The translations under genes were made by a program, and so were the position numbers. Under the pieces are notes generated by a model, which searched no databases, was not told the origin of the DNA, and saw only the letters and a list, made by a program, of their open reading frames with translations. DNA of 64,000 nt from an uncultured Erysipelotrichaceae bacterium (GTDB taxonomy: Bacteria; Bacillota_I; Bacilli_A; RF39; UBA660), in NCBI GenBank assembly GCA_963535465.1, contig CAUSWF010000002.1, positions 64,606 to 128,605 of the forward strand, read 5' to 3'. Below, piece by piece: positions 1 to 36,273 of the stretch (positions are counted from its first letter, which is position 1; each line of letters begins with the position of its first letter).

Positions 1-1943
1 GGAGAACCTACCTGTCTTACTCTTGGTATTTTATTAGGATCTGGATAAGTAGCACGAGGTCTATTTATAAAGTATTTATAAAATCCTCTATCTCTTGCCC
101 ATGTAAGCATAGATACACGAGTTGCTTCTATATTAGCTTGACAATTATAATACATTAACATTTGCATAGCTGTTTTGTAAGCAACTCTAACATCGTCAGG
201 TCTTGCTAAATAGTAGGCTACATACATTGGTTCTTGATTTCCAAAAGCTCTTTTCTTTATAGTAATACAGAATTTAGAAGGAGATTTAGTAGCTTCAGAT
301 GTTTGATCTTGTCCTATATCAATAGAGTCAATTCCAGCTACATATAAATTTTTCATTTCTTTATAAGAAATTTTATTTCCTTCTTCATCTTCTGATTGTA
401 ATAACCATAATGGTTGCTATATTATATGAACTTCGCCTGTATTAGTTGGAATAAACTAAACATCTGTAATATTATCACACATATCCTATTTTCTTCCATT
501 ATTTGTTTTAAATATAAATTTAAATTCTCCATGTTGTACTTTAGGACCTTGCTTATGTAAACGTATCTAAGCTAACTAATCTGCAAGTAAAACCTTATTA
601 AATTTATTATCTCCTTCAAGGGCAAAGGCTTCTTCAGCAGTAAAACAATACTCAGCACAGTATGTTACTAAAGCTTTAGGATCTTTATATCTGTCTCTAT
701 GTTTTTGATAATGTTCTTTAGCTTTTACTTGGTCAACAACTCCTCTAGAATCTACCATATCAGGTAAATCTAAAGCAGAATAAGATGGAATAAAAAATCC
801 AGTAAATACTTGACTTCCATCATCAGTGTAATTATGTCTATAAGGCAATACAAGATAGGATTCTGGATCATAATATATTGTTTTTAATCCATCCAAGGCC
901 GCACCCGAGTCCCCTCCAGTACCACCTGCTATAAGGATACCCATTTTATTACCTCCAACATCTACTAAAGCTTCTCCTTGAATAAAAGATTTTAGTAAAG
1001 TCGGATTAGATCCAGCTTCTTCAAACATAACAAGTTCCGCACGATCACCTCTTACTTTTGAAGGTTTATCAGCAACAATGCCTTCAATTTGAGACTTCCA
1101 TCCATCTTCTACTTTTTGTCCATTTATTATTTTATAAAAAGAGGCTCTTTTAATATCTGCCTTATCAACAACTTGTCTTAATTTAAAAAATCCTCCATCT
1201 GTTTTATCATTTAGGAAAGTTAAAGCTCCCCATACTTTCTCTAGAGTTTTTTCTAATTTACCAGAATCAAAAGCAGTAATCATAGTAATACTATCTCTAT
1301 AACAAGAGTACTCATTAGCACATACAGATGCTAATATTTCCGAAAAACCTACAGCACGGCTTTTCATCATACATATATTTCTTCTTAATAATTTACATAA
1401 TTCTAAATAATGAAAGAACTCATACTAACATACCATAAACCGTGGAAATATATTTTTACGTGCTGTACCAGCTTTTTCTACTCTAGAATTTTTAAGTTGA
1501 TAGTAATTTAAAAAGAAATAATTACATCCTGTAATAGTATAACCATTAACAGTCATTCCATTACGGCATCTTTTATATTCTTGATTCCAGAAATCTCTGT
1601 ATAATTTAGATCCAAATTGATATTGACAATAATGTCCTGTCTTTTCAAAATTATCTCTTGCTTCTGTAAACCATGAAGGATTAAAATCGAGACCGTGTAT
1701 TGCATCTATTGGTTTATATCCACATATTTCGTAGGATTGTGTTCTATCAAAAAAAGATATAGTCTAACTAATTGGGTAATCCCATTCAAAATTAGTTCTG
1801 ACTATATCTTTCTCTATATCCTAAATAAATTCCTTTTCTTCCTTAGCTTCGGCCTGTTTTGTAGCATCTATAATAGACTAAACCTCATCAGGAAGTTTAA
1901 TTTTTCTAGGACGACCTCTTTTACGTTTTTTAATTTCTTCCAT
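1..1943 (-). CDS. terL: Terminase large subunit, C-terminal end runs off the window start; TAG read as sense
   Basis: ATG at 1943-1941. The frame stays open to base 1 only if nine in-frame TAGs are read through (plus-strand cta at 1878, 1821, 1764, 1425, 576, 567, 486, 456, 417). ORF-track fragment 576..1370 plus the flanks give FLNYYQL, MFEEAGSNP, ILIAGGTGGDSG, AGIDSID and NIEAT, which are TerL ATPase/nuclease-type motifs. Confidence 0.85.
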
Positions 1944-2530
1944 TACATATCTGTTGGTAAGAATCCATCAGTAGCACCTGCTCTAATTGCTGAGGCTTCT
2001 TGTTGCTCTTTTTGAACTTGCTGTTCTAATATTTTTAATTCATCATTTACTTTAGATATCTAAGACATTTCTTTCATAATATCAGAAACTTTATAAATAG
2101 GTTTACCTGTCTAATCATCAACTTCCATAGGATTAACAGTTTCAAAGTAAATAATAAATTTATCAACAGCCATCTAAGCAGCTTTAAGCATACGTATAGT
2201 ACGATTAGATTCTTGTATTTCTTTATATTTTCTACAAGCAGCTCTAAAAGTAGGATCATTCCATTCTTCTTCTGAAAGTCCTGCATCTTTTAAAGCTTCT
2301 TGGTGTCTATCTTGTTCTGTGTAATCTTTATAAAAAGATTCCCAGTCTATAGCTAAGTATATATATGTAAATTCTCGGTAAGCTCTTAAATGTTTCTTAC
2401 CTGTTTTATCTTCAGTGCAAACATTTCTCTTATCATCCATTAAAGCAGCAAATTCTCTAATTAAAAGAATTTGCCCTTTTTCCAATTCTACCTAACCACT
2501 TGCATTATTGTACTGAAAAATATGTAACAT
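1943..2530 (-). CDS. Hypothetical late protein (195 aa), recoded
   Basis: ATG 2530-2528, TAA 1945-1943 overlapping the terL ATG. Four in-frame TAGs (2492, 2174, 2111, 2060). It contains ORF-track piece 2174..2485. Confidence 0.6.
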
Positions 2531-2535
2531 TATAA

Positions 2536-3855
2536 TTATTTATTTAAATGAAGAATGCTTCTAAGTTTAACAAAATCAATATTACCTCCATTAAGACATT
2601 TCTTCATCTTTCCACCTTTTTTATCTTCTCTTACTTCAAACTGTGCTTTAGTTTTAGAAGATTGACTATTAAATTTTTTAATTAATCCTTGAAGTTCTTG
2701 TTCTTCCGCTGGAGTAAGTTTACCTTTAGCTCTTTTAGAAGTAAGTTGATACTGACGTGCATTATCTTGTTTAGTATAAGTAGGAACAACTTTTACATTA
2801 GAATTACCTGTACGCATATTTGAAACTGTAGAAGAAATTGCTTTTTTCTTAGTTTTATCTGCTGGCATTTCCATACCTTCTTCAGCAGTTCTCATTCCAC
2901 GACAAGCAGAGCATATACGACCTCCTGCTTTAAAATAATATTTATAAGTACCTTCAGGACATTCCCCTTTAATTTGTTTAATATAGTTTAATTTAGCACC
3001 AAGCTTTGCCATCTAGGTCTGTTTATTAGCTTCTTCTTGAAGATATTGTTGAAACTATTTCCAAGATTCTTCATTTGGTTGTAAATTATTAGCTTTACAA
3101 AATTCTGCAAAAGCTCTTTTAATTTCTTCGTTTTGGTCTAATTGACCTCCATTCTAATATTTCATACTATCGTTATTATAATCAAGTCTAATTCTACGTC
3201 TATCTCTAGCTCCAATATGCCCTTTAATACCTGTAGCTGCAAGATATTTTTCCCAATCTTCATCTTTACTAACATCTAATCCTCTATTTTTTAATTTAAT
3301 AGCTAAATCATTAATAAATAAATCTTTCCCCGGATTTATTAATGCGTTTCTAAATTGATCTATATTTTGTATACCATTATATCCTCTATCCATTAAAGAT
3401 CCAGATTGATTACGTAATCCTTGTCTTACAATAGCTCTATTTACTTGATTAAGTCTTGGCTATACATTTTTTCCAATTTCTGGTGTATAATTGTACACAT
3501 TAGGAGTAGTATTAAAAGAATGGTTTTCAAATTGTTCAGGAGTAGTTTTATCACCGTATCTAAATGTTTTAGCCATATTTAAAGCATTAGCTGTTTCATT
3601 TCCCCATAAACCATCTTCTTTAATATAACCTACTTCATTTCCATACATAGCATTGTACCATTTCTAAAAAGCAAGGGCATTATCAAAACCATGAGATTCT
3701 ACTCCATTATTATCCCATGTAATATTATTTAAATCTGGATTAGCATTAGCAAAAGCTTGAGCATATCCTAAACCATTATAACGACCTCTTTTAACTATTG
3801 CATTATCTTGTTTATATCTATACTAATCCCACTTTTGTACTGGTTTTTTTATCAT
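2536..3855 (-). CDS. Hypothetical virion/cell-wall-associated protein (439 aa), recoded
   Basis: ATG 3855-3853 to TAA 2538-2536. It joins track ORFs 3460..3648, 3154..3393 and 2536..3012 in one frame through six TAGs (3823, 3664, 3460, 3154, 3055, 3013). DGLWGNETANAL resembles a peptidoglycan-binding repeat. Confidence 0.6.
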
Positions 3856-4076
3856 AGTTTAATTAAATCCTTAGTATTAAAAATTGCTTCCTATAATTTA
3901 TTATCTGTTGAGAACCATCTACATTTAATTCCTCGAAGAATTGGTTCTTTATCAGCATTTAGATGCTTGAATATTGTTGTTTCTTTCTTTATTACCAGCA
4001 TAGTAGGTTTATTAGGAATATCCTATTTAAGCGTTACTATATCTCCAGGCATAAAGTATATTTTATCATTTATCAT
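3852..4076 (-). CDS. Small DUF2158/YodC-like protein (74 aa), recoded
   Basis: ATG 4076-4074, TGA 3854-3852 (ATGA overlap with the next gene). Two in-frame TAGs. GDIVTLK(TAG)D...TMLV...IKCRWF resembles the GDxVxLKSGGPxMTV...CxWF pattern recalled from memory. Confidence 0.45.
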
Positions 4077-4662
4077 TATTATTAAATCTTTCTGTTAGTC
4101 CAGAGTTAAAAATAGCTATAAGACTATGTTCATTAACAAGAACAAAACCTTTACGATAAAATGGTATTATAGTTTCAGATGGTTTACGCCACATTACTAT
4201 ATCACCTACTTTAGTATAAGTGCATTTAGTTCCTACTTCCATAACTTTTCCTACTTTAATAAATGGATCTTCTTCATGCATAGCACCATCTTCTCTACTT
4301 TTATAAATAGGTGCTTTACCTCCAAGATCAACAATTAAACCATCAACTTTTTTAATTCGTTGAAAAGGATTAACTACAAAAGGAGAAATAATTATGCCTT
4401 CGTAAAGAGGTTTCATTTCTAAAGTATCTAGGTTAATGTCTTTACTATAATCTGTTAATTGTTTGTTATAATTATCTAAATTAGATAAATATTCATTTAC
4501 ATCTTCTTTATGCTTATTTTCTTTTTCTATAACAAGATCATCTATTGTTTGATCTTTATTTACTATGAAACTTTTAGAATCTTCTGAACTTACTTTGATT
4601 GCTACTTTTTCTTTATTAGACGGAGTAGTATTAACGTCTCTTCCATTAATTGTTCTTATCAT
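4066..4662 (-). CDS. Hypothetical protein, C-terminal half possibly GroES/Cpn10-like fold
   Basis: Intact ORF-track ORF. KPLYEGIII...GKVMEVG...KVGDIVMW loosely resembles the Cpn10 pattern. Weak. Confidence 0.4.
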   Translation of the reverse strand: MIRTINGRDVNTTPSNKEKVAIKVSSEDSKSFIVNKDQTIDDLVIEKENKHKEDVNEYLSNLDNYNKQLTDYSKDINLDTLEMKPLYEGIIISPFVVNPFQRIKKVDGLIVDLGGKAPIYKSREDGAMHEEDPFIKVGKVMEVGTKCTYTKVGDIVMWRKPSETIIPFYRKGFVLVNEHSLIAIFNSGLTERFNNNDK

Positions 4663-4663
4663 A

Positions 4664-4903
4664 TTACCATTTATTACTAGGACATTTTTCTTCTTTTACA
4701 GAAGTTTTTAAATTGATAAAACATCCACATAGACCACATATTTTTTGATTATCTATTACCTCTAAATATTTACATCTATTACAATACTTTAATCTATTAA
4801 AAGAAAGCTCTTTATTTTTTCCAATAGTATAATTGAATAAACCTTTTATTATATGTTTAATTTTCGTTGGAAAATTCTCCATAATATTTTTTAGCTGCTT
4901 CAT
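4664..4903 (-). CDS. Small Cys-rich (zinc-ribbon-like) protein
   Basis: ORF-track ORF with CNRC...CGLCGC...CPSNKW. Paralogous to 5474..5740. Confidence 0.5.
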   Translation of the reverse strand: MKQLKNIMENFPTKIKHIIKGLFNYTIGKNKELSFNRLKYCNRCKYLEVIDNQKICGLCGCFINLKTSVKEEKCPSNKW

Positions 4904-5480
4904 TCCTAGCTTTAACAGCTTCTTCTAATGTATCATAACGTCCAATATATTTAGTTTTATTATTTAATGTAATTTGGGCAGTCCACTTATTTTTATCTTT
5001 TGAAAAATATACACCTTTATGTCCAGATGTATTATTTTTTGGGACAGTACAATTACATAAATTTTGTTGGTTTGTACAAATTCTTAGATTGCATTTTCTA
5101 TTATCTAACCCATTATGATTGATATGATCTATCAATATTTTTGGATCAGTAATATTTAAAATATACCTATGCAATCTTCTAAATTGTTTATTATTAGAAG
5201 TACAATAATATGTATTTCTTTGCAGATCTGATTTATGCCATCTTATAGCTTTTACTTTTTCTATATCTTCTATATCTATTAAAGCTTTTCCACATATTTC
5301 ATTATCCCTATTTATTAAAAATATTTCAGCATGATCGTCAACTATTTCTATATGGTTTGTTTTATCTTTATACGAATATTTAAAAATTTTTCCGTATCTT
5401 CTTATTTGTGTATAATGTTTAGAACATAATCCATTAGCACAAACTTTTTTACCACATCCTTCAATTTTACATATTACCAT
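4857..5480 (-). CDS. HNH homing endonuclease with C-terminal AP2 DNA-binding domain
   Basis: DHINHNGLDNRKCNLRICTNQQN (HNH) followed by SGHKGVYFSKDKNKWTAQI...GRYDTLEEAVKARNEAAKKYYGEF (AP2). Confidence 0.8.
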   Translation of the reverse strand: MVICKIEGCGKKVCANGLCSKHYTQIRRYGKIFKYSYKDKTNHIEIVDDHAEIFLINRDNEICGKALIDIEDIEKVKAIRWHKSDLQRNTYYCTSNNKQFRRLHRYILNITDPKILIDHINHNGLDNRKCNLRICTNQQNLCNCTVPKNNTSGHKGVYFSKDKNKWTAQITLNNKTKYIGRYDTLEEAVKARNEAAKKYYGEFSNEN

Positions 5481-5776: not shown

Positions 5777-7693
5777 TTAATATTCTATCGGTTTAAGTTT
5801 GGCTAATTTTTCTTGTTTAAAAACAGACTTTTTATAAAATTTTAGCATTGATTCTACTTCTTTCTTTAAATAAGGTAAATGATAAACTGTTTGATTATCA
5901 TTATGATCAAAGTGTACTAATATTAAATCTTTAATAGTATATTCTGGATTAATTTTTTGTAACATCCATGCATAAGTAGATAACTGTAAAGCATAATGCC
6001 AGTAATTGCAATCTTCCAAAGTGTTCAATGGATACTTCATTTTAACAGAACTACGAGTTTTAGTATCAAAGCCACTATGTTGTTTGATTTCTTTATTAGT
6101 ATTATGTGTAATTATACATTTATTAGTAACTAAAAAAGTATGTAAAGGGCTGTCTACTTCTAAACATTGTGTTGGAATAGTTTCTGTAATTTCTACTTTA
6201 TTAATATTTCTAAATGAATTTTTATCTATTTTTGGAAATTCAATTTCTTGATTTCTTATTAAAAAAGGATTTAATCCATTAGTTGAGAAACATACATCCC
6301 AAGCAATAAATTCTTTACCATTACATTTTTTTATTACTTCAAAAACAGTAGATTTTATACCTAATGTTCCTAATAATTTTACAGTACAATCTCTTTGCCA
6401 TTCTTGGCCCGTAGACATTACAAAACGTTTTCTTTTAGGATGATAATAACCATCAGTATCCATTAATCCTCTTAATAAGTCTAATCTTTGATTAAATGAA
6501 GCTGTATAATACTCTTCTGGAATATGTTTATTTTTTAAAAGATTCATTTTATTTAATAAAGTTCTTAATCCATAAACAGTCCTCATTTCAGTATTTTCTC
6601 TATCAGGATTATGTTGGGCATTTTCCCCTATATCAAAGCCACGATGTTTTAGTTCATCCCATAATTTAGATTGACTTGCTTGCGTAATAATACCACAATC
6701 TTTTGAACCATCACCTAACCAAACTCCTAATAAATAAGGATCTATTAGTAAATCTTTAGTTGGAGTATTAATAGGTTTTGGATTTAGTATTTTAGGAATT
6801 GTATAAGAATTTCTAGTATAAGTTTGCATATAATTATAAAGTTCCTTTGTAGTTATTACTCCTTTAGTATAAGGTGTTTTTTTACTTTGATTTTTAAATG
6901 ATACTTCCCAACGGTGATCTTCATCAGCTACTATAGTGTCTCCGTTATCAAAAGTTATTTTGAAGCATGGATTATTATGTATAGATGATTTATGCAAAAT
7001 TCGTGTAGGATTACCGTCTCCATCAAAAATAACATCCCCTTCTTTTACAGCTCCTATAGTAGTCCATCCAGAATTTGTTAATATTTCTGTGTCTAAAGGT
7101 AATCCTTTCCAATCCATGACTGTTATTTCATTACCTTGTTTAACTAATAAATCAATCTGTCCTGCAATTCTTAGCATGTTATCAGGAGAAGTACGAGAAA
7201 TTAAGTATTCAGGATATACTCCATTTTCTAAATCTAACGCAGTTCTTCCTTTATCGCATATAAATTTACCTCCTACACCAAATTTCTTTAGTGATACATT
7301 AGCACCCATCTTATACATACTTTGCTCTAGATCTGAATGTATTTTAGTACCTCTTTCACAAGATTCTCTATTAGTTTTATCCCATTCATCTAAAATACCT
7401 TGTTGTGCTTTATTAAAATCAAGTTCAGTAATATCATACGTACTTAAAAGTTCTTTAGGTATTTTGTGTGTATTCAACAAAGATTTTCTTTCTATTTTCC
7501 AAGCATCTGAGGGAATTAACTTTTCTAATGCCTTATATCCAGACCAAAAATCTTTATCAAAGGGTTGAGCAAACTTTTCTATTAAAGTTGTTACTGAAAT
7601 AAATCTATCATTTGTATCTGTATTCCAGTATACATGGTCATTTTCACTGAATGCAATGCTTCCATTCTGTTTGTCTATTTTCATATTATTCAT
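5777..7693 (-). CDS. PD-(D/E)XK (RecB/Cas4-like) nuclease interrupted by an intein
   Basis: Extein motifs are ERGTKIHSDLE, GQIDLL...VMDWK|..|TNK (D-x-K-T restored on splicing) and YALQLSTYAWML (QxxxY). Residues 197-531 are intein-like. Confidence 0.8.
   Translation of the reverse strand: MNNMKIDKQNGSIAFSENDHVYWNTDTNDRFISVTTLIEKFAQPFDKDFWSGYKALEKLIPSDAWKIERKSLLNTHKIPKELLSTYDITELDFNKAQQGILDEWDKTNRESCERGTKIHSDLEQSMYKMGANVSLKKFGVGGKFICDKGRTALDLENGVYPEYLISRTSPDNMLRIAGQIDLLVKQGNEITVMDWKGLPLDTEILTNSGWTTIGAVKEGDVIFDGDGNPTRILHKSSIHNNPCFKITFDNGDTIVADEDHRWEVSFKNQSKKTPYTKGVITTKELYNYMQTYTRNSYTIPKILNPKPINTPTKDLLIDPYLLGVWLGDGSKDCGIITQASQSKLWDELKHRGFDIGENAQHNPDRENTEMRTVYGLRTLLNKMNLLKNKHIPEEYYTASFNQRLDLLRGLMDTDGYYHPKRKRFVMSTGQEWQRDCTVKLLGTLGIKSTVFEVIKKCNGKEFIAWDVCFSTNGLNPFLIRNQEIEFPKIDKNSFRNINKVEITETIPTQCLEVDSPLHTFLVTNKCIITHNTNKEIKQHSGFDTKTRSSVKMKYPLNTLEDCNYWHYALQLSTYAWMLQKINPEYTIKDLILVHFDHNDNQTVYHLPYLKKEVESMLKFYKKSVFKQEKLAKLKPIEY
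6101..7105 (-). mobile_element. Intein (335 aa) with LAGLIDADG homing-endonuclease domain; class-3-like WCT signature
   Basis: Block A is GLPLDTEILT (Gly, not Cys/Ser, at position 1). Block B is TIVADEDHRW (W two residues after His). LAGLIDADG motifs are LLGVWLGDGS and LLRGLMDTDGYY. Block F is TQCLEVDSPLHTFLV (Cys where Asp is usual). Block G is IITHN followed by Thr+1. Confidence 0.75.
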
Positions 7694-8378
7694 TTACATA
7701 TTTTTTTATATTATTATAATCTAGTATTGCTGCTAACTTAGAAATTTCTGGACCTATAACTACTGGATAATAAGGCATCTTATACTCTTTCTTCTTTTTA
7801 TAAAGTATTATTATTAATCCAATAGGACTATTACTTCCTGCTATAGGATAAAAAGCAGCAGCTCTAGCATTACTTGCTAAAAGTTTATTGTAAAATTTTG
7901 GCATAGAATATTTAATAGAATCTATATTATTTACTCTTAATAGAGAGTAATTATTTATTTTCTATAACTCATCTATATAATAAACATATTCAAGTTCATG
8001 CCATTCTCTTTTTGTTTCTTGCGAATCTATGCCTCTAGTCTTCTCAGTAAGGCAATTTAAATACTAGTAACTAAAACCTTGTAAACTTCTAGTTGAATTA
8101 TGATAACTTAAAAGTATTACATTTGTAGCATCAGGATCTTTATCAAGTATTGCCTAAACACTTCTATCTATTTCTGGAGCCATTTTAAGAGTATACTTTT
8201 CAGCTTCCTACTTATCATTCTCCATAGATTCAGCCCATTGTTTAATGCTGTTTTTGTTTTCAGAAATTATATAATTTCCGAGGCACCATCCTAATAATCC
8301 AATTATAATTACAGTTTTTGTTTGTGTGCCCAAACTATCTAAAAATTCCCAAATCTTTTTTATTAATTTTAATTTCAT
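7686..8378 (-). CDS. Membrane-anchored hypothetical protein (230 aa), recoded
   Basis: ATG 8378-8376. N-terminal TM segment TVIIIGLLGWCLGNYII. Five in-frame TAGs join it to track ORF 7686..7904. Confidence 0.55.
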
Positions 8379-8560
8379 TAAATTTTTAATTAATACTTTT
8401 TATTAAGCTTTTACTTCCTTTCAAATCTTTACGCAAATCTTAATTCTAAATATAATAAATAAACTTACTAAATTTTGAACTAAACAAATTTAATAATATT
8501 TTTACAGTAATCAAATTTAGAGATATAAATTATAACAATTTTTATAAATACGTTTATAAT
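8379..8560. promoter_or_regulatory. Divergent intergenic region between the two recoded late blocks (putative late promoters)
   Basis: 182 nt of AT-rich non-coding sequence between ATG 8378 (minus) and ATG 8561 (plus). No specific promoter motif identified. Confidence 0.35.
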
Positions 8561-9331
8561 ATGGCAGTAAATAATAGTATTTACAATAACAAAAATCCTA
8601 ATATTAAATATAATATTTAGAATTTATTTACTACGGCTAAAATTGCTTCTTTATTAAAGAAAGGAGGTAATGTACATAGAACAGATATATTTCCAGGGGT
8701 TATAGATACTAATGCTAATTTTGATAATATGAGTCCTAGGAAAAAAAGAAAAAAGATTAAAAAACATCAAGATGGAGGAGAAATAGAAGTGGTTGAATAT
8801 AATCCTGTAGTATTATCTTTAAAAAAATTAGATTATCCAGAACTAAATAATATTAATACTAAAACTTTAGATATATCTGGATTATCTTTTGATAAATTTA
8901 CTCCACCTTCTATAAATAATATGCGCGTATAGGAAAATTATCCTATAAATCCAAATATTAGTTTAGAAGATTTATTAAAACAAGAAGGAGTAAATGCAAA
9001 AGTTTCTTCTGGTTATAGAAAGGGAGCAATATCAAAAAATGGACATAAAAGTAATCATAGTCATTTAAATTCTGATGGAACTCCAGGAGCTTATGATATA
9101 GTTCCTAATGATGGTAACTTTGAAAATCTTAGAAAGGAGATATATGGTAATCCACGTATAGTTGCATGGCTTAAAGCTAAAGGTTGGGGTATTTTAGAAG
9201 AAACTACTCCTAATATTATGAGAAAAACTGGAGCTACAGGTAAACATTGGCATTTTGGTCCTGATACTGCAGCCTTAGATATGTCTAGATAGAATGGAAT
9301 TAATTATACTAAATTAGGAGGTTTATTATGA
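8561..9331 (+). CDS. Peptidase M15 (VanY / L-Ala-D-Glu peptidase)-like cell-wall hydrolase, recoded
   Basis: ATG 8561, TGA 9329-9331. Three in-frame TAGs (8618, 8930, 9293). SSGYRKG...SNHSH...GAYDIV...GKHWHF matches the SxHxxGxAxD...HxH zinc-peptidase pattern. Confidence 0.6.
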
Positions 9332-10470
9332 TAGAAACTACAAAATATGATAATATAGATCAGTAGTTTGAATATCCAGATTTACCAAGTATTAATAATT
9401 CTAATAATACTATAATAGCAGATGAGGCTACTGAAAATTATCTTAGGGCTGTTCAAAATGAATATGCTTTAAAGGCTTAGAGAGATAAAGAATTATGGGA
9501 ACAACAATAGAACGTTAAAAATAATTAGCCTAATTAGTAGTATTCATTTACAGATAATAATATACCTCAAATAAGTAGTTCTAATAAACAAGGATCTTAG
9601 AAAGTAAAAGAAATACTTGATAATATGATACATGATCCTACTAAAAAAACTATATTGTTAAAAATTGCAGAAAAAGAATCTAATTTTAAAATAGATGCTA
9701 AAAATGCTAAAAGTTCTGCTAGCGGTTTATTTGGATTTTTAAATTCAACTAAACAAAAATATGGTTATGGTAATACTGCTGAATAGTAGATTTAGGGAGC
9801 ATCTAAATTATATGATGCTCATGCTACTTAGTTATAGTAGTATATAAATAAATATGGAACTAGAGGTAAATCAATAACTTAGTTAATGTATGGTATGTGG
9901 TTTAGACCTACTTCTTTACTTCATTATTTACAAACAGGTCAAGATGATTATAAAGATGCACAAGGAACTAGTTTAGAAAAAATATTTGCAAAAATGGCTA
10001 AAAATGGAGGAATATTAAAAGCATAGGATGGAATAATAATTCCAAAAGCTCCTAATACATTTAGATAGTATGGAATAGATCCTAATAAGTTTGTTAATAT
10101 GTGGAACGGACTTGTTAATAAAGGAATATCTCCACAAGTAGCATTTGATGCTACATGGCAAGCTAATAAAGAAGTTCCTAAAGGATATTATTCATATGGA
10201 AAAAAGAAACCTAATCTCAATAGTTGGGTAGAAGCTGCTTCAGATAGTTTAACCACAGGAGCATATAAAAAAGCAAAGAATGCTTAGAATTTTGATTAGT
10301 ATAGATAGGCTACTTTTAAATATAATAAAAATCCAGAATATACTAATTGGTTAAAAACTAATAGATAGGATGCTGTTAATTTTATAAACAGATATAGACA
10401 ACAAAACGGAATAGTAGGTAAACCTATAGCTTAGCTTATCCCAGTAACTTAGATAATTAATAACGTATGA
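9328..10470 (+). CDS. Lytic transglycosylase (SLT)-domain protein, recoded
   Basis: GGAGG precedes ATG 9328; TGA at 10468-10470. I counted 22 in-frame TAGs, including TAG-TAG doublets. IAEKESNF...SSASGLFGFLNST resembles the SLT catalytic ES...GLMQ region. Confidence 0.6.
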
Positions 10471-10745
10471 TAAAGAATTTTATAAAAAGTATGTTACTAG
10501 CTACTCAAGGATCTATAAGTTCTAAAAGAGTTTGTGGAGTTCTTGGTTGGTTAGTATGTTTAGGTATTTGTATTTACTGTACAGTTGGTTAGATACAAGC
10601 TCCTATACTAGCAGACAGTGTTCTTATAGGTAGCGCAGCATTAATGGGCGTAGATAGTGTTACAGGTATATGGAAAAATAAAAGAGATATAAATATTATA
10701 AAAGAAAATGAAACTAATGTAGAACAAAATAATAGTTTAGTATAA
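10467..10745 (+). CDS. Holin-like small membrane protein (92 aa), recoded
   Basis: ATGA overlap with the upstream gene. Two hydrophobic segments (VCGVLGWLVCLGICIYC, ILADSVLIGSAALMGV). One in-frame TAG, TAA stop. Confidence 0.5.
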
Positions 10746-10750
10746 TAAAT

Positions 10751-13183
10751 ATGACTCAAATAAAATTTGATAAATCTAAAAAATATTATGATAGTAAATT
10801 AAATAAATACTATGGTTAGGGTATTTGGTTTAAGGATACTAATGATGATGGTAAATATAATGAAGGAGAATCTTTAATTCCTATGGGAAATAGAATTAAA
10901 AATTCTAATAATTCTTATGTACAATTAAATTCTGATGGAAGTAGAACTTTATTATATTCTAAAGGTAAATTTACTAATACTAATATTTCAAATGTAGATA
11001 AATAGGCTATATCTAAAGGATTAATATATGGACGCAATGCTTCTTTACAAAATAATAAATATGTAAGATCTAATAATGGCATAAGTAATTGGGATATAGA
11101 TACAGTTAGACAAAAAAATAAAGATGGAAGTTATACAGATATTAATAATAATACATCTTTTATATATAATAAAAATAAATATATTGGAACAGCTGGCAGT
11201 AAAAATGTAATAGATTTATATCATAACGTAGTAAGTAATGATGGAGGTAAAACTTGGTCTAGAAATTCTACAACTCAAAAATCTGTAAGTCCTTTTATTA
11301 CAAGACGCTATGGTACATAGCCTTTAGGTTAGTATTTAAATCCAGATACTAATATTAAAACAAATTATGCTGAAGTTAATTTTGGAGATACTAATGGTTA
11401 GAATCAATATTTAAAAAATAATTATTGGGTATATGATGATGGTAATGGTAATGTTCAAACTATCGGATTTAGGTATAAAGATGGTAAAGATTATGCGTTT
11501 TTATCAGACGATAATAATTTTTTAAATGATAATGTTTCTGGTATTTTAAAATCTAAATAGAGTATAGGTTCATCTAAACTTAAATCTTATAGTGCTGGTT
11601 TTACTCCAGGTATGGAAAAATGGAGAGGAAAAGGTGGATGGTATACAAATGTAGGATAGGATCTCCCCGATATAGTATACGGTGCTAAAGATGGTTATTT
11701 ATATAATAAACAAGGATAGCAAATAGGATTTAATGCAAATGGTACTTATTATTTAAAAAATAATATTATTGCTTCTGAAGAAAAACCTACATTTAAGAAT
11801 ACTTTAGTAAATGGGTGGTCTGGCTTAGTACAAGACTTTAGTAATTTAAGTTCTAGATTTGATCCTTCTAATAATTAGGGTTTCCAAAATAGATTTACTG
11901 GAATATTTGGAGATTTAGGTAGAGGAATACAGCATGCTGCATAGGGTACTGTAGGGGCATTAGCTACTGCTATTATTCCAGATAGTTTGAATGAAACCAT
12001 AGGTAAGTATGGTTAGATTACCGATATAGGAAAAGATTTAAGAAGTATAACTAGTTTATTTGGTAATGGGAAATTTGTTACACCTTGGGATTAGGATAAC
12101 CATGGCCTTGTTGATTACGCAGATATAATTGGCAACAAACAAGGTCTTCAAGATATAAACGATGCATTAAATGGAGCAACTGTTTTAATCGGAACTAAAG
12201 GATTAGGCACAACAAAAGAAGTTTTAAAAGGAACACTGCAGGGAACAAAAGCTATGAGGTTTACTGAAGCTGCTCTTAAAGGAGCAAAAAATACTTCTAA
12301 AAATATATATTCAAATGGAGCATATTATACAGGAAAAGCAGGATTACGTCCAAGTAATATTACTCCTATGATTAATGCTGTTAAACAAGGTTTTAAAAAT
12401 GCACGTACTTATTATGAAGAATCTGCTCCAGTAGTAACAAAACCAACAATAGTTGAGTCTAAACCAGTAACAGCAGGTACAAAATAGTATATACAACCTA
12501 CAATAAAAAAACTTAATCCAAATAAAGGTGCTGAAGTAGTATATAATATGAAATTTAATCCTGTTTAGGAAGCTTAGAATATAATGGCTAAACCTAAATT
12601 TATATTTAAAGAAAATTCTATAGTACATGTTCCTAAAGGATTACCTGTAAAAGTAGAATAGCCTGTACTAACATAGCAACCTGTTGTTAAACCGTCTGTA
12701 CAAAAAATTCCTAAAACTGCACCTAAACAATTAACTTTAGAGTTTGTGGAAGATAAACCTAAATATGTACAACCTATATTAAAACAGCTTAATGATGCTA
12801 AAAAAGCTGAAATTGCAAGTAAAATAGTTCCTATAGATTATGCAAATGTAGCACATACTATAATGTAGTCTAAACCTACTATATAGCTTCCAGAATTTAG
12901 ATTTTCTTCTAAATTTAATCCTGTTTCTGAAGCTAAAGCTAGAACAGTTAGTAATACTTCAAATGTAGGAAATATTCCTAATAAAAATATTAAGTATGTA
13001 GAAAGTCAACCTACAGTTAATAATTCTAAAATACTACAGTGGAAGCAAGCTAAAGAAATTAAAGCAGTACCTAAAACAATGAAACCTAAAAGTAAAAGTA
13101 AAATATTGAAAAAAGTAAATAAAAAATATTTAGGTGGAATTTTAAATAATAAATTTAATAATTGGATAAATGCAAATAACTAA
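10751..13183 (+). CDS. Large virion/tail-associated hypothetical protein (810 aa), recoded
   Basis: One frame is open from ATG 10751 to TAA 13181-13183 with 19 in-frame TAGs. It contains track ORF 12254..12487. C-terminal internal repeat: Y(I/V)QPxxKxLN...KFNPV(TAG/S)EA occurs twice. Confidence 0.55.
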
Positions 13184-13697
13184 TTTTATAAAATATATAT
13201 AGAGTTGGGAAGGAGGTTATGCTAATATACCTCAAGATAGTGGAGGTCCTACTAATAAAGGAATTACCCTAACTACTTTCCGATCTATATTTGGGCAAAA
13301 CAAAACAATAGATGATTTAAAGAAAATGACAGATGAGCAATGGTGGAAAGTATTTAAAACTAAATTTTGGGATAAATACAAAGCAGATAATATTAAAGAT
13401 GAATGGTTAAGATATTTATTAGTAGACTGGTTATGGTGTTCTGGTCAATGGGCTATTACTAAAGTTTAGAAATTACTGGGATTAAATCCAGATGGAATTG
13501 TCGGAGACAGAACTATAACAGCTATTAATAGTAAAAATCCTAAACAATTATTTGATACTATTTGGAAGATGAGAGAAAAATTCCTTCAAGATATTTCTAA
13601 AGGTAAGAATAGTATATTTTTAAAAGGATGGCTTAGACGTCTTAATGGGCTTAAATATGGTTATTTAGTAACTAGTAATAATAAAATATTAAAATGA
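13170..13697 (+). CDS. GH108-family N-acetylmuramidase with PG_binding_3-like C-terminus (endolysin), recoded
   Basis: WEGGYANIPQDSGGPTNKGIT is the GH108 signature, and LLGLNPDGIVGDRT is PG-binding-like. In-frame TAGs at 13200 and 13467. TGA at 13695-13697 overlaps the next ATG. Confidence 0.75.
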
Positions 13698-13924
13698 GTT
13701 TTATAACAAATTTTAAAGAATCCAATAGGTATAAACACTTTTGGTGTGCTATACCTATTGGATTAATTTTTACTATACTTTGTGTTATTGGGTGTGCAGG
13801 AGGTATGGAATTTAAAGATAAACAATATAGTAATTATTGGGATTGGAAAGATTTTGGATTTACTGTATTAGGAGGATTTGTCGGACAGATATTATAGATT
13901 ATATTAATATTAATTTTATTATAA
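13694..13924 (+). CDS. Small membrane protein (76 aa), lysis-cassette partner, recoded
   Basis: Hydrophobic segments WCAIPIGLIFTILCVIGCAGG and GFTVLGGFVGQIL(TAG)IILILILL. TAG at 13895, TAA at 13922. Confidence 0.5.
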
Positions 13925-15273
13925 TGCCAAAACCTTTTGATTTAGATTTACATAAAAGTTATAATGTAAATAATAAAAGTAAAAATTATAAGTCCTTTAC
14001 TGGGGCTAATGGAGAATTATGGTATACTGATAGACCTTTAATTACTTATAATAATAGTAAATTAGCTTATGTAACTAACGGAAGAAATGCTAGATGGGTT
14101 ACTGTTGGAAATGAATTTAATACTTAGCCTTAGATGTTATCTAGAGAACAAGCTGTAAAACGAGATCTTAATAAACCTAGAATACAAGCAGCTAATGATT
14201 TAACTTAGGGTTTAACTGATCTTATTACAGGAGGAATGGCTGGATCATTAAGAGAAGGGGCTTAGAATCTTACTAAAGGTAATTATATTAAGGGTATTTC
14301 ATAGTTAGCTACACCTGCCATGTTTGGATCTGGAATTGCAGGAAATATAGCAAGAGCAGGTGTCGGATCTTATAATTTATTAAATGAAGATAGAGTTAGA
14401 AAAACATATAAATATATTAATAATAAGGAATATGGGAATGCTGCTGTTTCTGGATTAGGAGATATTTTAAATGGAGGTATGGCTATACATGGTGGTACTT
14501 AGTTATTTAAAAACTACAGAATAGTTGAACCTAAATTATTAAGTGCTAATTTAAATAATAAAAATATGCCATATTACTCTTAGTTTGAATAGTAGGAAGC
14601 ATAGCAACATATGATATCTGATATAAAAAGAGGTTATTAGAATTTTAAAGATTGGATGACGAATCCTCATTATTTAGAATCTACTTTAGACAACATGGAA
14701 GAAGCTAAAAGAATGGGTTTAAAATATACACCTACTTATGATAAACCTCATTATAAAGCACTAATGTAGAACGGTATTAAAATTAATTTTAAGAAATAGA
14801 TGCAGGGTAATGGTGCTACTAGTTAGTTTGGTGCATAGGCCGGACATCCTGCTGAAGTTGATTTAAATTTAGGATCACCACAATCATTTTTTAATACTGT
14901 AAGACATGAATCTGGGCATGCTGCTTATCATGGTAATGGGTTAACTCCAGATGAACTTAAATATTTAAGATTTAAAACTCATTAGGCTTTTATAGATAAG
15001 GCTGAGGCTGGTCCTTATGATTTTCATTAGTAGACTGGTGAAGCTGCTATGAACGGTAGAGATTTAGGACATGATTTAGGAATATCTGTAGGACAATCTT
15101 ATCCAGGATATTAGAAAGCTTTAGAAACATTAAATTCAGGACTAGGCAAATCTACAAAAGATGGAATGATTAAATTATTTAAAACAGATGAACAATCTAT
15201 GCCTTATGTATGGAAATTACTTAATGGTACTTTACTAGGAGGAGCTTTAGTAACTAAATTTAATAATAAATGA
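13924..15273 (+). CDS. HExxH zinc-metallopeptidase-motif protein (449 aa), recoded
   Basis: ATG 13924 overlaps the upstream TAA. 19 in-frame TAGs, TGA at 15271-15273. Contains VRHESGHAAYHG. It joins track ORFs 13837..14127 and 14320..14502. Confidence 0.55.
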
Positions 15274-15780: not shown

Positions 15781-15782
15781 AG

Positions 15783-15870
15783 TTGCCTCGCTAGGATTCG
15801 AACCCAGATTGACGCCCTCAGAAGGCTACAGATTTAGAGTCTGCCGTAATAACCATTATACTACAAGGCA
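15783..15870 (-). tRNA. Suppressor tRNA, anticodon CUA (reads TAG), 88 nt with long variable arm (type II architecture)
   Basis: Reverse complement: TGCCTTG TA GTATAATGGTTATTAC G GCAGA CTCTAAA TCTGT AGCCTTCTGAGGGCGTCAAT CTGGG TTCGAAT CCTAG CGAGGCA A. It has a 7-bp acceptor stem (U1-A72), a 7-nt loop with C34 U35 A36, and A73. Confidence 0.85.
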
Positions 15871-15876
15871 TTAAAG

Positions 15877-15948
15877 TTATCCCACTAGGATTCGAACCCA
15901 GACTAAGAGGGTTAGAGCCTCCTGTGCTAGCCGTTACACCATAGGACA
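15877..15948 (-). tRNA. Suppressor tRNA, anticodon CUA (reads TAG), 72 nt, tRNA-Gln-like
   Basis: Reverse complement: TGTCCTA TG GTGTAACGGCTAGCAC A GGAGG CTCTAAC CCTCT TAGT CTGGG TTCGAAT CCTAG TGGGATA A. U1-A72 is present, and the D arm is nearly identical to the phage tRNA-Gln(UUG) at 31788..31858. Confidence 0.85.
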
Positions 15949-16134: not shown

Positions 16135-16503
16135 TTAATCATTTAAATACGTTACTAAGCGTTTTATTTCTGCACGTACTGTGTTATGTACTACAGTTTT
16201 AAACATATCAAGTACTTCGCTTGCAGTATTGTTTAAATTCCACTCATTGAGGGTTTTACCTGTTTGAGTTTCTACTTGCTCACAAGCTTTATTGAAAACA
16301 TCATCATCTAAATTATTTAAATAATCCTTAAGTTCTTTAGCAGATTTAAGTTCACTTTCATCACCAACTAACTTAATTGATATTGTTCCGTCTTCCTTAT
16401 TAATTTCATCTACTTTATAAGTAATGCCATCAATAATATAATTTTCCTCTTCTATACTATTTTCGGCAATACTATTAATTAAATTTTGTAATACTTCTTG
16501 CAT
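16135..16503 (-). CDS. Acidic hypothetical protein
   Basis: ORF-track ORF, no motif recognised. Confidence 0.5.
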   Translation of the reverse strand: MQEVLQNLINSIAENSIEEENYIIDGITYKVDEINKEDGTISIKLVGDESELKSAKELKDYLNNLDDDVFNKACEQVETQTGKTLNEWNLNNTASEVLDMFKTVVHNTVRAEIKRLVTYLND

Positions 16504-16707
16504 GTTTATTATTTAATTTTTAACTGTTACAATTATATATAAATATTAATTTATTACCAAATATAAAATGTTAATTTTTGTTGTTTTGTACTAAATTTTC
16601 TAATTTTAAAATTCTTTCTTTAAGCGACTTAATATCATTAGTATTCTTTTGTATTCTCTGTTCATGATTCTCAAGAACAGATATAATTTCTTGGTTTATT
16701 TCTTTTT

Positions 16708-18180
16708 TCATAATATAAATTTATAAATAGTTACTCTTTTATAATCTACTTGTTTTCTTGTCTTTTTAAATTCAGGAAAAAATGATTTTATTGTATTATT
16801 ATTCCATGTAAGTTGGTGTTCTTTTAATAAAGGTTTAAATATTTCCTGTATTTCATCTGAAGTATATTCTGATTTATTCAGTTCTACTAATTTATTATAT
16901 ATAAAAGGCAAGCCATGTTTAATTTTACTTGTAGCAATATTTGGTGTAAATGAATATTCCTCTGCTTCTTTTAATACTGCTAAACTATCAGAATAAATTT
17001 CACTAATTAAATCGTAGTTATATAGATCCAGTTTTCTAAGATTATCATCGTAAAATATCTTATCATTATGTTTATTAAGATATAAATTATAATAAGTATC
17101 TTTACTAAATAATTTTAATTCAGTTATATAATCATCAGCATCTAATTTATCTGTAAGTTCTGCTTTTCGTATACCTCTTCTTCTGGAATCTTCTACTAAA
17201 TTTAGAAAGTCTGTTTTAATAGTTCCTGCATATCTATGTTTATTTGTATTTAATATAAGTATACATTCATCTTTATATTTAGAATCTCGAAGTCGTCCAC
17301 ATACTTGTCTAACTTTAGTAGCTATATCTAATACTGTATTAGATACATTAGTATCTGATAATATTATACATAATCCATTTTTATCGTAAATATCACATCC
17401 TTCAAAAGCACATGATGTATAAAAATTTAAATGTTTTACTTCTGAATTTACTTCTGCATAATTACGTATTTTATTTTTACTATTTACTGAGCATACTACT
17501 CTATAATCTGGATTATCTAATTTTTTAATGATCGCATTTATTGTAGCTATAGAATTTAAAAATATATGTAAGTTTCTATCTTTATACATATCTATAATAT
17601 ATAATAATTCTTTCTGCACATAAAAAGTATCTCGAATATTTAGTTTAACAGGAACAGAATTTTGCCATTCATATGTAATTTGAGGTATATCCTTTAACTC
17701 TTCTAAAATACATTCAGGCTTAAGCGGAGTAGCTGTTAAGAATGCCCAATCTTTAAATTTATTAAAGTTTTGAAGAATATTTACAATAGCATCATTTCTA
17801 AAACTATAATCATTAAATAATAAGTGATATTCATCTATTAGTAAAAAATAATCTGGATAATTAGGAATTAACTCCATAAGTCTTGGAAGAGAATCATATG
17901 TAGCTATAATCTTTTTATATTCTAATGCTTTCTTTAAATAATTTTTAATTACTGTATTACCTACATCTCCCGTAACTCCTAGAACATTATCATTTGATTT
18001 AGATATTACTAAATTTTTAGTAGGACTAAGTATTAAACTATTCCGCCTAGCATTGATTTCAAGAGTTGTTCCGCCACAACCTGTGATTCCTTTATTAATA
18101 AGACAGTGTGATGGTAATTCATTAATTATATCTGATAAATATTGACACTTTTTGTCAATTAAAATTTTTTCATTTTGCAT
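16708..18180 (-). CDS. SF2 helicase-like protein with atypical motif I
   Basis: LLIDEYH (motif II DExH), FLTATP (motif III) and VRQVCGRLRD (motif VI). Motif I reads GITGCGGTT, with no Walker lysine. Confidence 0.6.
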   Translation of the reverse strand: MQNEKILIDKKCQYLSDIINELPSHCLINKGITGCGGTTLEINARRNSLILSPTKNLVISKSNDNVLGVTGDVGNTVIKNYLKKALEYKKIIATYDSLPRLMELIPNYPDYFLLIDEYHLLFNDYSFRNDAIVNILQNFNKFKDWAFLTATPLKPECILEELKDIPQITYEWQNSVPVKLNIRDTFYVQKELLYIIDMYKDRNLHIFLNSIATINAIIKKLDNPDYRVVCSVNSKNKIRNYAEVNSEVKHLNFYTSCAFEGCDIYDKNGLCIILSDTNVSNTVLDIATKVRQVCGRLRDSKYKDECILILNTNKHRYAGTIKTDFLNLVEDSRRRGIRKAELTDKLDADDYITELKLFSKDTYYNLYLNKHNDKIFYDDNLRKLDLYNYDLISEIYSDSLAVLKEAEEYSFTPNIATSKIKHGLPFIYNKLVELNKSEYTSDEIQEIFKPLLKEHQLTWNNNTIKSFFPEFKKTRKQVDYKRVTIYKFIL

Positions 18181-18230
18181 ATTTTTAAAATTTTAAATTT
18201 ATTAGTACTTAAGTATGAAAAAAGGTTCTC

Positions 18231-25267: not shown

Positions 25268-25353
25268 GGAGATTTAAGCCTAATTGGTAAGGCAGCAGTT
25301 TGCTAAACTGCCAGTAATCGTAGTAATATGATGTATAGGTCCTATAATCTCCA
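25268..25353 (+). tRNA. Aberrant tRNA-like element (Ser-GCU-like) lacking a canonical T arm
   Basis: Perfect acceptor GGAGATT/AATCTCC. D arm GCC TAATTGGTAA GGC. Anticodon arm GCAGT TTGCTAA ACTGC. Extra arm ATCGTA-GTAA-TATGAT. The T arm is replaced by the mini-hairpin tATAGGTCCTATa. Confidence 0.45.
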
Positions 25354-28751: not shown

Positions 28752-28766
28752 TAAAAATTTTTAATT

Positions 28767-29540
28767 ATGAATCTTTTTAAAAAGAAAAAATATAAAATTC
28801 TAAAAGATGATTTTAGAATAATTGATGGTATTAAAGTTTATAGAATACAAGCTTTAAAATCATTTGCTAATGTAAAGAAAGGCGATTTAGGAGGATTTAT
28901 ACAATCTGAAGAAAATCTTTCACAACAAAATACTTGTTGGATATATGATGTAGCTATAGTTAAAGATGAAGTTAAAGTTCTAGACGATGCTAAAGTTTTT
29001 TCAAATTCTATATTAAGAGGTGTATTTACAGTAGAAGATGCTTGTAGTATTGTTGATTCCACTATTAAAGTTAAATTATGTGGTAGTATAAAAGATGGTA
29101 TACATCTTTGCGAAACTAATATAGATTCATATACTATGACACTTAAGACTGGAGTATTAAATAATAATGATATATATGCTACCAATTTAACAGTAATCGA
29201 CTCTTCTTTAAAATATGTAACTTGCAATGAAAGTAATTTATATTTTAATAATAGTTATTTATATGATGTAAAAATTAATAATTCTGTAACTTTAAATCAA
29301 GTAATGGCAAAACAAACTGAAATATCTTCAAATTCTGATATTTTTGTTTTTTTAAATAATTGGTCTAGCTTACGTTATTTTAATTACGTAGTTCCTAATA
29401 AGACTTGGTATGTTGGCTGTTTTATAGGTTCAGGAGAAGAACTTATTAAAAAAGCTTATAAAGACAGTGAATTATCTGGAAAAATGTATGAGAAATATGT
29501 TAAGTTTATAGAAAAACTAAATGAAGATAAGAACCCTTAG
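28767..29540 (+). CDS. Hypothetical protein (257 aa), repetitive beta-rich sequence
   Basis: ORF-track ORF. It ends in TAG (29538-40). Confidence 0.5.
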   Translation: MNLFKKKKYKILKDDFRIIDGIKVYRIQALKSFANVKKGDLGGFIQSEENLSQQNTCWIYDVAIVKDEVKVLDDAKVFSNSILRGVFTVEDACSIVDSTIKVKLCGSIKDGIHLCETNIDSYTMTLKTGVLNNNDIYATNLTVIDSSLKYVTCNESNLYFNNSYLYDVKINNSVTLNQVMAKQTEISSNSDIFVFLNNWSSLRYFNYVVPNKTWYVGCFIGSGEELIKKAYKDSELSGKMYEKYVKFIEKLNEDKNP

Positions 29541-31787: not shown

Positions 31788-31858
31788 TGGGATATGGTGT
31801 AATGGTAACACAGCGGGTTTTGATCCCACTATTCCTGGTTCGAATCCGGATATCCCAA
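31788..31858 (+). tRNA. tRNA-Gln (UUG)
   Basis: Acceptor TGGGATA/TATCCCA (U1-A72). D arm GGTGTAATGGTAACAC. Anticodon loop TTTTGAT. T arm CCTGG TTCGAAT CCGGA. Confidence 0.8.
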
Positions 31859-32018
31859 CAAAATAATTTACTAATTAAATTAAAAAATTATGAGTAAGAA
31901 AAATTTTGTAAATCTTATGCAAAAAAAGCATAAGGAGTTTGTTCAGTTTGCTAATGCAACTAACTATTATAAAAAACATAATATTGAAAATTTTTTAACT
32001 AAAGAATACGAATAAATT

Positions 32019-35954: not shown

Positions 35955-36273
35955 GGGGCTGTTTGGTTTTGATTGTATAAGGAAGTAAAAATAACATGCA
36001 AAGACTGATGGAAAGACATCAATTCAAATTAAATGCTAAGGTTATTCCTATGAACAGCTTTGCTGTTCGCATTGCAGCTTAATGACTGCCGAGCTGGTAA
36101 CTTGCTTAGGAACAGAAAAGTTACAAATTTATAATTAAGTTATCCCTTCTTTAAAAAGGAAATTTTCATATTGCTAAATAATATAAAGATGATGTAACAT
36201 CTATAAAAAACTAAGCATGTAAAATTATTTGAGGTATTTATACAAGACGAGAGTTCGAATCTCTCCAGCTCCA
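35955..36273 (+). ncRNA. ssrA: tmRNA (SsrA), phage-encoded
   Basis: The 5' GGGGCTG pairs with the 3' CAGCTCC, followed by A. T arm GAGAG TTCGAAT CTCTC. The conserved ACTAAGCATGTA element is present. The tag frame 36035-36082 ends GCAGCTTAATGACTGCC, as in the E. coli GCAGCUUAAUAACCUGC, and the predicted tag is AKVIPMNSFAVRIAA. Confidence 0.85.

Follow-up and report, generated by a model that had tools for sequence, protein, structure and literature searches.

Two transfer RNA (tRNA) genes with the anticodon CUA stand in tandem on the minus strand of a 64,000-nucleotide (nt) stretch of DNA from an uncultured Erysipelotrichaceae bacterium (contig CAUSWF010000002.1, positions 64,606 to 128,605; the whole stretch is called the window below). 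One is a compact 72-nt gene and the other an 88-nt gene with an extra arm, which raises the questions of which amino acid each inserts at TAG codons and what the extra arm is. ARAGORN calls the genes at 15782-15870 and 15876-15948, each with CTA in a 7-nt anticodon loop. The Rfam model RF00005 (gathering score, 29 bits) likewise places CUA in a normal 7-nt loop in both and scores them at 57.7 bits (15783-15870, 88 nt) and 54.1 bits (15877-15948, 72 nt), in agreement with an initial reading made from the letters of the window (the sequence-only reading). The label "Pyl" that ARAGORN gives to both denotes the CUA anticodon and nothing more, and CCA is encoded 3' of neither gene. TAG stands for glutamine (Gln) in the late genes of this DNA, and both tRNAs are Gln-type suppressors; we consider it somewhat more likely than not that both insert Gln and that the longer one divides decoding and synthetase identity between two arms.

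The two suppressors share a U1-A72 pair and identical T arms (CUGGG UUCGAAU CCUAG), and the 88-nt copy has a variable region of 20 nt, all as first described. A73, by contrast, had been listed as a peculiarity of the longer copy and is also present in the 72-nt tRNA and in an ordinary phage tRNA-Gln(UUG) at 31788. The variable region had been folded into a stem of 4 base pairs (bp; GCCT/GGGC); the form conserved across relatives is instead a 3-bp stem closing a 7-nt loop (GCC UUCUGAG GGC). This element (hairpin 2) occupies the place of a class II variable arm and is laid out with 1 nt before it, 6 unpaired nt after it, and a loop of the anticodon type. The segment aligns with the anticodon arm of tRNA-Gln(UUG) as A-GCC UUCUGAG GGCGU CAAU against ACGCC CUUUGAA GGCGU UAAU, an alignment by which hairpin 2 carries U33, C34-U35-G36, and A37. 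A search pattern made of hairpin 2 and the T arm alone also matches 72- to 75-nt phage tRNA-Gln(UUG) genes, at their anticodon arm.

The remainder of the molecule is Gln-like in its acceptor stem and T arm and appears so in its D arm. The acceptor helix has 7 bp and the T stem 5 bp, both 95 to 100% paired; the D arm of the window copy is left with 3 bp by a U13/U22 mismatch (class II D arms have a 3-bp stem and a long D loop), and 14 of 17 relatives have a Gln-type 4-bp GUGU/GCAC stem with a 7- to 8-nt loop. When the 17-nt CUA hairpin (hairpin 1) was deleted in silico, ARAGORN called a tRNA-Gln(CUG or UUG) in all 17 distinct relatives of the same group (group A), the window copy included (as CUG). 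Of 137 genuine Ser, Leu, and Tyr tRNAs subjected to the corresponding deletion, only 15 were still called as tRNAs, and their anticodons were scattered. Judged by these sequence comparisons, the 88-nt gene consists of a tRNA-Gln body into which a 17-nt CUA hairpin is inserted between N26 and the original anticodon arm, and its apparent variable arm is its own former Gln anticodon arm (CUG).

No blastn match to the 88-nt gene was obtained among 50,697 phage records, and relatives were found by pattern searches only. An exact search of IMG/VR for the hairpin-1 arm turned up long CTA tRNAs at 19 loci, and at six of these the same tandem pair is present. Over the 17 distinct relatives, the five-helix fold is 97.8% paired, and its covariation of 0.52 (0.16 in shuffled alignments) was reached in none of 500 shuffles. 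Pairs have changed on both sides in both hairpins: at two stem pairs in hairpin 1, which occurs in the compensated forms GCAGA/UCUGU, GCGGA/UCCGU, GCGGU/ACCGU, and ACGGU/ACCGU, and from G-C to U-A in hairpin 2. Samples anchored on hairpin 1 or the D arm did not select for hairpin 2. Among the 22 distinct long tRNAs collected with hairpin 1, or with the D arm and hairpin-1 loop, as anchor, the second loop reads CUG in 17, UUG in 4, and CCA in 1 (locus L148). In the hairpin-2 loop of the 17 group-A tRNAs, U35 and G36 are invariant and position 34 is C or U only, while positions 32, 33, 37, and 38 vary (A37 is kept in at least 90%) and one stem pair varies. When hairpin 2 was the anchor, every long tRNA recovered had CUA in hairpin 1, in a loop CUCUAA(A/C), and the long CUA relatives lie in TAG-recoded DNA. 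A second set of long tRNAs (group B) has a different stem and body with Trp-like acceptor stems and keeps YUG. The 1:72 pair is weak or mismatched throughout the long family (U-A, U/U, A/C, A-U) and unpaired in 6 of 17, with close relatives combining G73 and a mismatched 1:72 pair. The two-armed type accounts for 21 of the 92 IMG/VR loci with Gln-like CUA suppressors, about a quarter; the rest are short. A scan of bacterial genomes returned mostly random matches and two real members; the contigs that carry them were binned as Bacilli and Mollicutes, and one, 163,874 nt long, is probably phage. As a separate observation, the G-U following hairpin 2 (15812-15813; columns 60-61 of alignment A1) is present in 17 of 17 relatives and unpaired in most, and none of the models considered here explains it.

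The same layout was found in suppressors of another stop codon. IMG/VR was searched for the loop CUUCAAA (anticodon UCA) followed by UCCAAA and then a T loop, which gave 66 loci, among which ARAGORN called 59 long opal suppressors, 47 of them distinct, in phage contigs (loci L337-L422). Their second hairpin has a freely covarying stem of 4 to 5 bp and a 7-nt loop NUCCAAA with the anticodon CCA; the example at L380 (1874-1921) has a complete tRNA-Trp anticodon arm with a 5-bp stem and the loop CUCCAAA. Deletion of hairpin 1 together with its linker left a tRNA-Trp in 41 of the 47. In a control search that took the UCA loop and D arm alone as its anchor, all 33 long loci had CCA in the second loop, and 13 loci were short. 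Like the 88-nt tRNA, these molecules combine a suppressor hairpin next to the D arm with a native anticodon arm and a normal 4-nt variable loop; they differ in being Trp-type, in a 5' linker of 2 to 6 nt, and in a full 5-bp second stem, and the window contains none of them. We propose two-anticodon-arm suppressor tRNAs as a structural class with a Gln and a Trp branch. Its layout is a suppressor hairpin after N26, a second 7-nt loop with the cognate sense anticodon, and a variable loop of 4 to 5 nt, and the 88-nt gene has this layout.

The meaning of TAG was read from DNA, both against close relatives and over 82 terminase genes aligned by codon, of which 16 lack TAG. Against relatives of 83 to 89% identity, TAG codons of the window align with CAA (21), AAA (13), GAA (9), CAG (3), TCN (3), TTA (2), and TAT (1), so that CAA/CAG is the commonest counterpart at the codon level. 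Three TAG columns in the large terminase subunit (TerL) of the window, 22, 173, and 456, are Gln in 14 of 14, 16 of 16, and 16 of 16 TAG-free relatives, respectively. Over the 140 TerL columns that bear TAG, Gln is enriched 4.4-fold, and the corresponding values are 0.96 for Ser, 0.5 for Leu, 0.44 for Trp, and 0.42 for Tyr. All three conserved Gln columns of TerL carry TAG (65 cells), in keeping with the Gln assignment proposed by the sequence-only reading. Contigs in which the long tRNA was the only type seen also have TAG at invariant Gln columns. An earlier inference from database homologues at the protein level also gave Gln; it was circular and was replaced by the 82-gene analysis. Two database terminases checked at the DNA level (L149 and L150, both 3001-5343) have 11 and 20 TAGs written as Q, and the protein alignments (P0001-P0120) are unusable for this purpose because TAG had been translated as Q by assumption. 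Proteins stored in this way make any naive inference of the code circular. Metaproteomics has shown TAG read as Gln in crAss-like phages (PMC9523058), and in E. coli extract Gln is inserted by 28 of 29 phage tRNA(CUA) and Trp by 13 of 13 tRNA(UCA) (2025 preprint, PMC12636597). TAG in the late genes of this phage is thus a Gln codon, and the 88-nt tRNA very likely inserts Gln.

How the longer tRNA would be charged and used can be outlined as follows. The CUA hairpin would sit under the D stem, with a G26/A44 pair, and read UAG on the ribosome, and its A36-A37-A38 would suit efficient amber reading; hairpin 2 would be tolerated there as long variable arms are. The two hairpins coexist in a single secondary structure. 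In the charging step, the CUG/UUG loop would, together with the weak U1-A72 pair, offer a cognate anticodon to glutaminyl-tRNA synthetase (GlnRS), or to a non-discriminating GluRS followed by GatCAB, so that hairpin 2 offsets the G36-to-A change in the decoding arm. A weak 1:72 pair is a feature tied to recognition by GlnRS and by GatCAB. In the opal branch, the CCA arm would present the cognate anticodon to TrpRS. The conservation of hairpin 2 suggests that it may act as a synthetase identity element, for which we see about even chances. Whether recoded phages evolved tRNAs that separate decoding (a CUA or UCA arm) from identity (a CUG/UUG or CCA arm) is likewise evenly poised. Phage stops have been reassigned to Gln and Trp, and the two-arm suppressors keep exactly Gln and Trp anticodons; so far, charging of phage suppressors by anticodon-reading host synthetases has been put down to assumed "side reactions". 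If the proposal is true, a spare cognate arm would explain both charging in genes with up to 5.7% TAG and the use of Gln and Trp only. It would also be a natural way past the main obstacle to codon reassignment, a new kind of tRNA identity element, and a design template for synthetic suppressors of anticodon-dependent synthetases. Even without an identity role, there are more than 70 distinct natural five-helix, two-arm tRNAs, which tRNA finders label merely "Sup" or "Pyl".

Several points weigh against such a role. GlnRS approaches its tRNA from the D-arm side, and the variable-arm position lies far from its anticodon-binding domain; with this geometry, hairpin 2 would need to take up the anticodon-arm position during charging. 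The stem of hairpin 2 is only 3 to 4 bp long, being short because nucleotide 28 is missing. Short CUA suppressors without hairpin 2 suffice in many phages, the 72-nt neighbor included. TrpRS is known to tolerate U34, and it is not evident why an opal suppressor would need a CCA arm. The roughly 10 loop substitutions that avoid positions 35 and 36 give a P value of only about 0.03, and counts over the family overstate independence, as the sequences are related by descent. The L148 lineage, to which L231 also belongs, adds a further difficulty. At L148 7720-7892, a tRNA-Trp(CCA) is followed 8 nt on by the long tRNA, which combines a CUA hairpin with a CCA arm and resembles the neighboring tRNA-Trp in acceptor stem and T arm. 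In a cell wall hydrolase of this lineage, three diverged relatives keep TAG at a column that is W79/F17/Y16/H2 among 114 homologues. TAG in this lineage might therefore encode Trp; other sites disagree, since TAG stands where Asn is usual in the internal repeats of a DUF285 protein of L148, and a search for further examples gave none.

Some of these points favor another explanation, in which the 88-nt tRNA inserts Gln and hairpin 2 is a leftover of a duplication or insertion, structural only and without an identity role. Its charging, like that of supE, would then depend on C34/U35 in the CUA arm and on the acceptor end. The geometry, which speaks against access of GlnRS to a variable-arm position (established structural knowledge), the shortened stem, and the suppressors that work without hairpin 2, in Crassvirales as well as next door, all speak for a relic, as does the fact that about three quarters of the Gln-like CUA suppressors are short. 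What such a relic leaves unexplained is the constancy of U35 and G36 and the restriction of position 34 to C or U, even though changes do occur elsewhere in the loop and in a stem pair. It accounts neither for YUG in group B, despite a different stem and body, nor for CCA in a covarying hairpin of the independent and more diverse opal family. We regard it as unlikely, though by no means negligible.

The sequence-only reading had raised the possibility that the long tRNA derives from a class II tRNA (Tyr, Leu, or Ser) and delivers another amino acid, so that TAG would be ambiguous between Gln and a second residue. A73, U35, A36, and the long extra arm could be taken in this sense, as could the decoding arm GCAGA-CUCUAAA-UCUGU, which does match the E. 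coli tRNA-Tyr arm at 15 of 17 nt (the latter sequence was verified in 5,426 of 5,426 genomes). In addition, weak in vitro charging of one phage tRNA(CUA) by a Prevotella TyrRS has been reported (PMC12636597). However, the body is of the Gln type and becomes a tRNA-Gln once hairpin 1 is deleted, what looks like a variable arm is a Gln anticodon arm with 6 unpaired nt behind it, and the stem occurs in several covarying variants, the Tyr-like one among them. The G73 and mismatched 1:72 pair of the relatives are the opposite of what TyrRS and LeuRS need. In the 82 terminase genes, TAG occurs at none of the conserved Tyr (0 of 16), Leu (0 of 12), or Ser (0 of 6) columns, and none of these three residues exceeds background at TAG columns. 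A class II origin is thus very improbable, dual decoding is not supported, and the codon data give no sign of a second designed meaning of TAG, although low-level mischarging may occur. Of the related idea that a long-armed tRNA was rerouted to Gln through its weak 1:72 pair, the routing to Gln and the weak or mismatched pair are supported and the Tyr, Leu, or Ser body is not.

It is also most unlikely that the 88-nt tRNA is a tRNA-Gln(CUG) that reads UAG in addition, or mainly a CAG reader with hairpin 1 as an accessory. A legal tRNA-Gln cloverleaf does result when hairpin 1 is looped out, and the 3' side of hairpin 2 is canonical, with GU and a 4-nt variable loop. Against this, CAG is scarce in the AT-rich phage genome (0 to 4 per gene), the phage already has a tRNA-Gln(UUG), the long relatives found without selection for hairpin 1 all have CUA and lie in TAG-recoded DNA, and an arm protruding at the 26/27 hinge is without known ribosomal precedent (established knowledge). 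A non-decoding role of hairpin 2, whether as a nuclease decoy or shield, as a handle for a protein or modification enzyme, or as a switch between sense and suppressor processing, would suit the general knowledge that phage tRNAs counter tRNA-cleaving defenses and the invariance of the mostly unpaired G42 and U43, but it is hardly probable given that a nuclease with specificity for Gln or Trp anticodons is not known from these phages, no candidate partner gene was found near the tRNAs (Pfam, 28 window proteins), and no bacterial machinery to excise such hairpins is known.

The 72-nt gene is an ordinary supE-like suppressor of the Gln type, a kind known from Crassvirales. Its identity to the single CTA genes annotated as tRNA-Gln in Crassvirales cr7_1, cr124_1, cr53_1, and cr60_1 is about 92%, and its D arm (UG GUGU AACGGCUA GCAC) is close to that of tRNA-Gln(UUG) (UG GUGU AAUGGUA ACAC), which bears out the Gln-like D arm noted at the outset. 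Together with the 6-nt spacer, the pair is identical at 166 of 166 positions in three related contigs with flanks of 86 to 94% identity, and at 162 of 166 (98%) in two contigs (L011 and L023) with flanks that do not align, a degree of conservation that speaks against chance. The terminase of these contigs is only 53% identical (L180). The 98% identity of the pair despite unalignable flanks and a terminase at 53% suggests that the two genes travel between phage genomes as a unit. A scan for sigma-70 promoters around the tRNAs found sites no commoner than in shuffled sequences, and Pfam searches of the 28 window proteins revealed no synthetase, release factor, or tRNA enzyme. Elsewhere, a 578-kilobase (kb) contig has two tandem short CTA suppressors of 75 and 76 nt (L031, 12747-12903). 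Their bodies are unlike tRNA-Gln (acceptor stems GCCUUCA/GAUUGCA; D arms UAGCUCAG), and their anticodon arms are GCAGA-CUCUAAA-UCUGU in one and GCGGA-CUCUAAA-UCUGC in the other.

The window derives from a crAss-like phage about 161 kb in size. Its nearest relative, a contig of 161 kb in IMG/VR, shares 96% identity in the terminase and carries the tRNA pair unchanged; IMGVR_UViG_3300022494_000021 is a close relative. The TerL of the window is 22 to 32% identical to Crassvirales TerL. With TAG taken as a sense codon, the first 16 kb gains in coding coverage (from 0-0.79 to 0.78-1.0) and long open reading frames are restored over 1-16 kb; the window beyond is hardly altered. In total, 89 in-frame TAGs are spread over nine late and lysis genes (1-3858 and 7686-15273), up to 5.7% of codons in the densest (22 TAGs in 386 codons). 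The tRNA pair lies on the strand of the standard-code genes at 16135-18192 and faces the end of the recoded block. The coordinates of these features are listed in Table 1.

Table 1. Position and description of the suppressor tRNA elements and of the TAG-recoded genes in the window
Feature	Position	Strand	Description	Basis
88-nt two-hairpin amber suppressor tRNA	15783-15870	-		ARAGORN, Rfam, five-helix fold with covariation, in silico deletion
Hairpin 1 (nt 27-43)	15828-15844	-	GCAGA CUCUAAA UCUGU; predicted decoding arm; CUA at 15835-15837; A36-A37-A38	
Hairpin 2 (nt 45-57)	15814-15826	-	GCC UUCUGAG GGC; retained tRNA-Gln anticodon arm; CUG at 15819-15821	
GU + CAAU	15808-15813	-	Relic of anticodon-stem positions 42-43, and normal 4-nt variable loop	
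Spacer between tRNAs	15871-15876	-	CUUUAA, 6 nt; conserved along with the pair	
72-nt Gln-type amber suppressor tRNA(CUA)	15877-15948	-	Class I cloverleaf; U1-A72; A73; loop CUCUAAC	ARAGORN, Rfam, ~92% identity to Crassvirales genes
Phage tRNA-Gln(UUG)	31788-31859	+	Ordinary tRNA; U1-A72; A73; reference Gln body	ARAGORN, Rfam
Large terminase subunit gene	1-1967	-	Cut at window edge; 9 TAG	
Two late genes	1943-3858	-	4 and 6 in-frame TAG	
Gene	7686-8399	-	4 in-frame TAG	
Late/lysis block	8459-15273	+	TAG-recoded	Codon-level comparison, Pfam GH108
Gene in block	8459-9331	+	3 TAG	
Gene in block	9313-10470	+	22 TAG	
Gene in block	10733-13183	+	20 TAG	
GH108 muramidase gene in block	13170-13697	+	2 TAG	Pfam
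Gene in block	13834-15273	+	HExxH motif; 19 TAG	

Some further features of the region were recorded. Two standard-code genes that end in TAG (28755-29540 and 53646-55193, plus strand) have a further stop 18 to 36 nt downstream, so that late suppression there would add a short tail only. Within the otherwise recoded block, two genes are free of TAG: a PD-(D/E)XK-like protein gene (5777-7693, minus strand), seemingly split by a LAGLIDADG-type insert that is possibly an intein (weak Pfam matches), and an adjoining HNH/AP2 homing-endonuclease-like gene (4857-5480, minus strand). At 25268-25353 on the plus strand, Rfam alone reports a tRNA match of 42 bits, uncalled by ARAGORN, with the loop UUGCUAA (GCU, Ser), a long variable arm, and a T loop that is almost absent; odd tRNAs of 85 to 87 nt resembling it are called in L039, L040, L049, L058, and L064. 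A phage transfer-messenger RNA was found at 35955-36276 (plus strand; Rfam, 72.8 bits; tag peptide AKVIPMNSFAVRIAA), and the region holds nine other tRNA genes.

The sequence-only reading was aware of no description of a pair of this kind. Several CUA suppressors in one phage are known, phAss-1 carrying three (PMC10607447), as are the reading of TAG as Gln and of TGA as Trp. In full-text literature, no description of a second, extra, or dual anticodon arm was found; most subscription journals lay outside the search, and an earlier description is possible. Reviews of noncanonical tRNAs and the allo-tRNA paper do not cover a two-arm design, and the preprint on phage suppressors makes no comment on a second arm (PMC12636597).

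Among known systems, the nearest are the tRNA(CUA) of phages that use code 15 (Crassvirales cr7_1 and cr53_1) and E. coli supE, which have the same CUA on a Gln-type body and the same meaning of TAG. The 88-nt gene differs from them by a fifth helix, namely, a second, Gln-anticodon arm. Classical genetics of E. coli provides the mischarging su+3 mutants of tRNA-Tyr and su+7 tRNA-Trp(CUA), both accepted by GlnRS. These cases resemble what is proposed for the 88-nt tRNA in that a CUA anticodon and a 1:72 pair that is weak or broken direct a tRNA to Gln, a long arm being no bar. They are point mutants of Tyr or Trp tRNAs, however, whereas the 88-nt tRNA is of the Gln type and its extra arm is not a Tyr variable arm. 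With the class II tRNAs (Ser, Leu, and Tyr), it shares five helices, a length of about 88 nt, and an extra arm between the anticodon and T arms. It differs in that a class II variable arm is a plain stem-loop followed on its 3' side by at most about 2 unpaired nt, compared with 6 here, and in that the identity of tRNA-Ser involves G73 and the long arm, compared with A73 here. [quoted passage not shown] The allo-tRNAs and tRNA-Sec-like molecules have 8/4, 9/3, or 8/5 acceptor/T helices, compared with the canonical 7/5 of the 88-nt tRNA, and their arm is read as a shape by SerRS or LeuRS. Unlike such arms, the extra arm of the 88-nt tRNA carries a specific cognate anticodon sequence.

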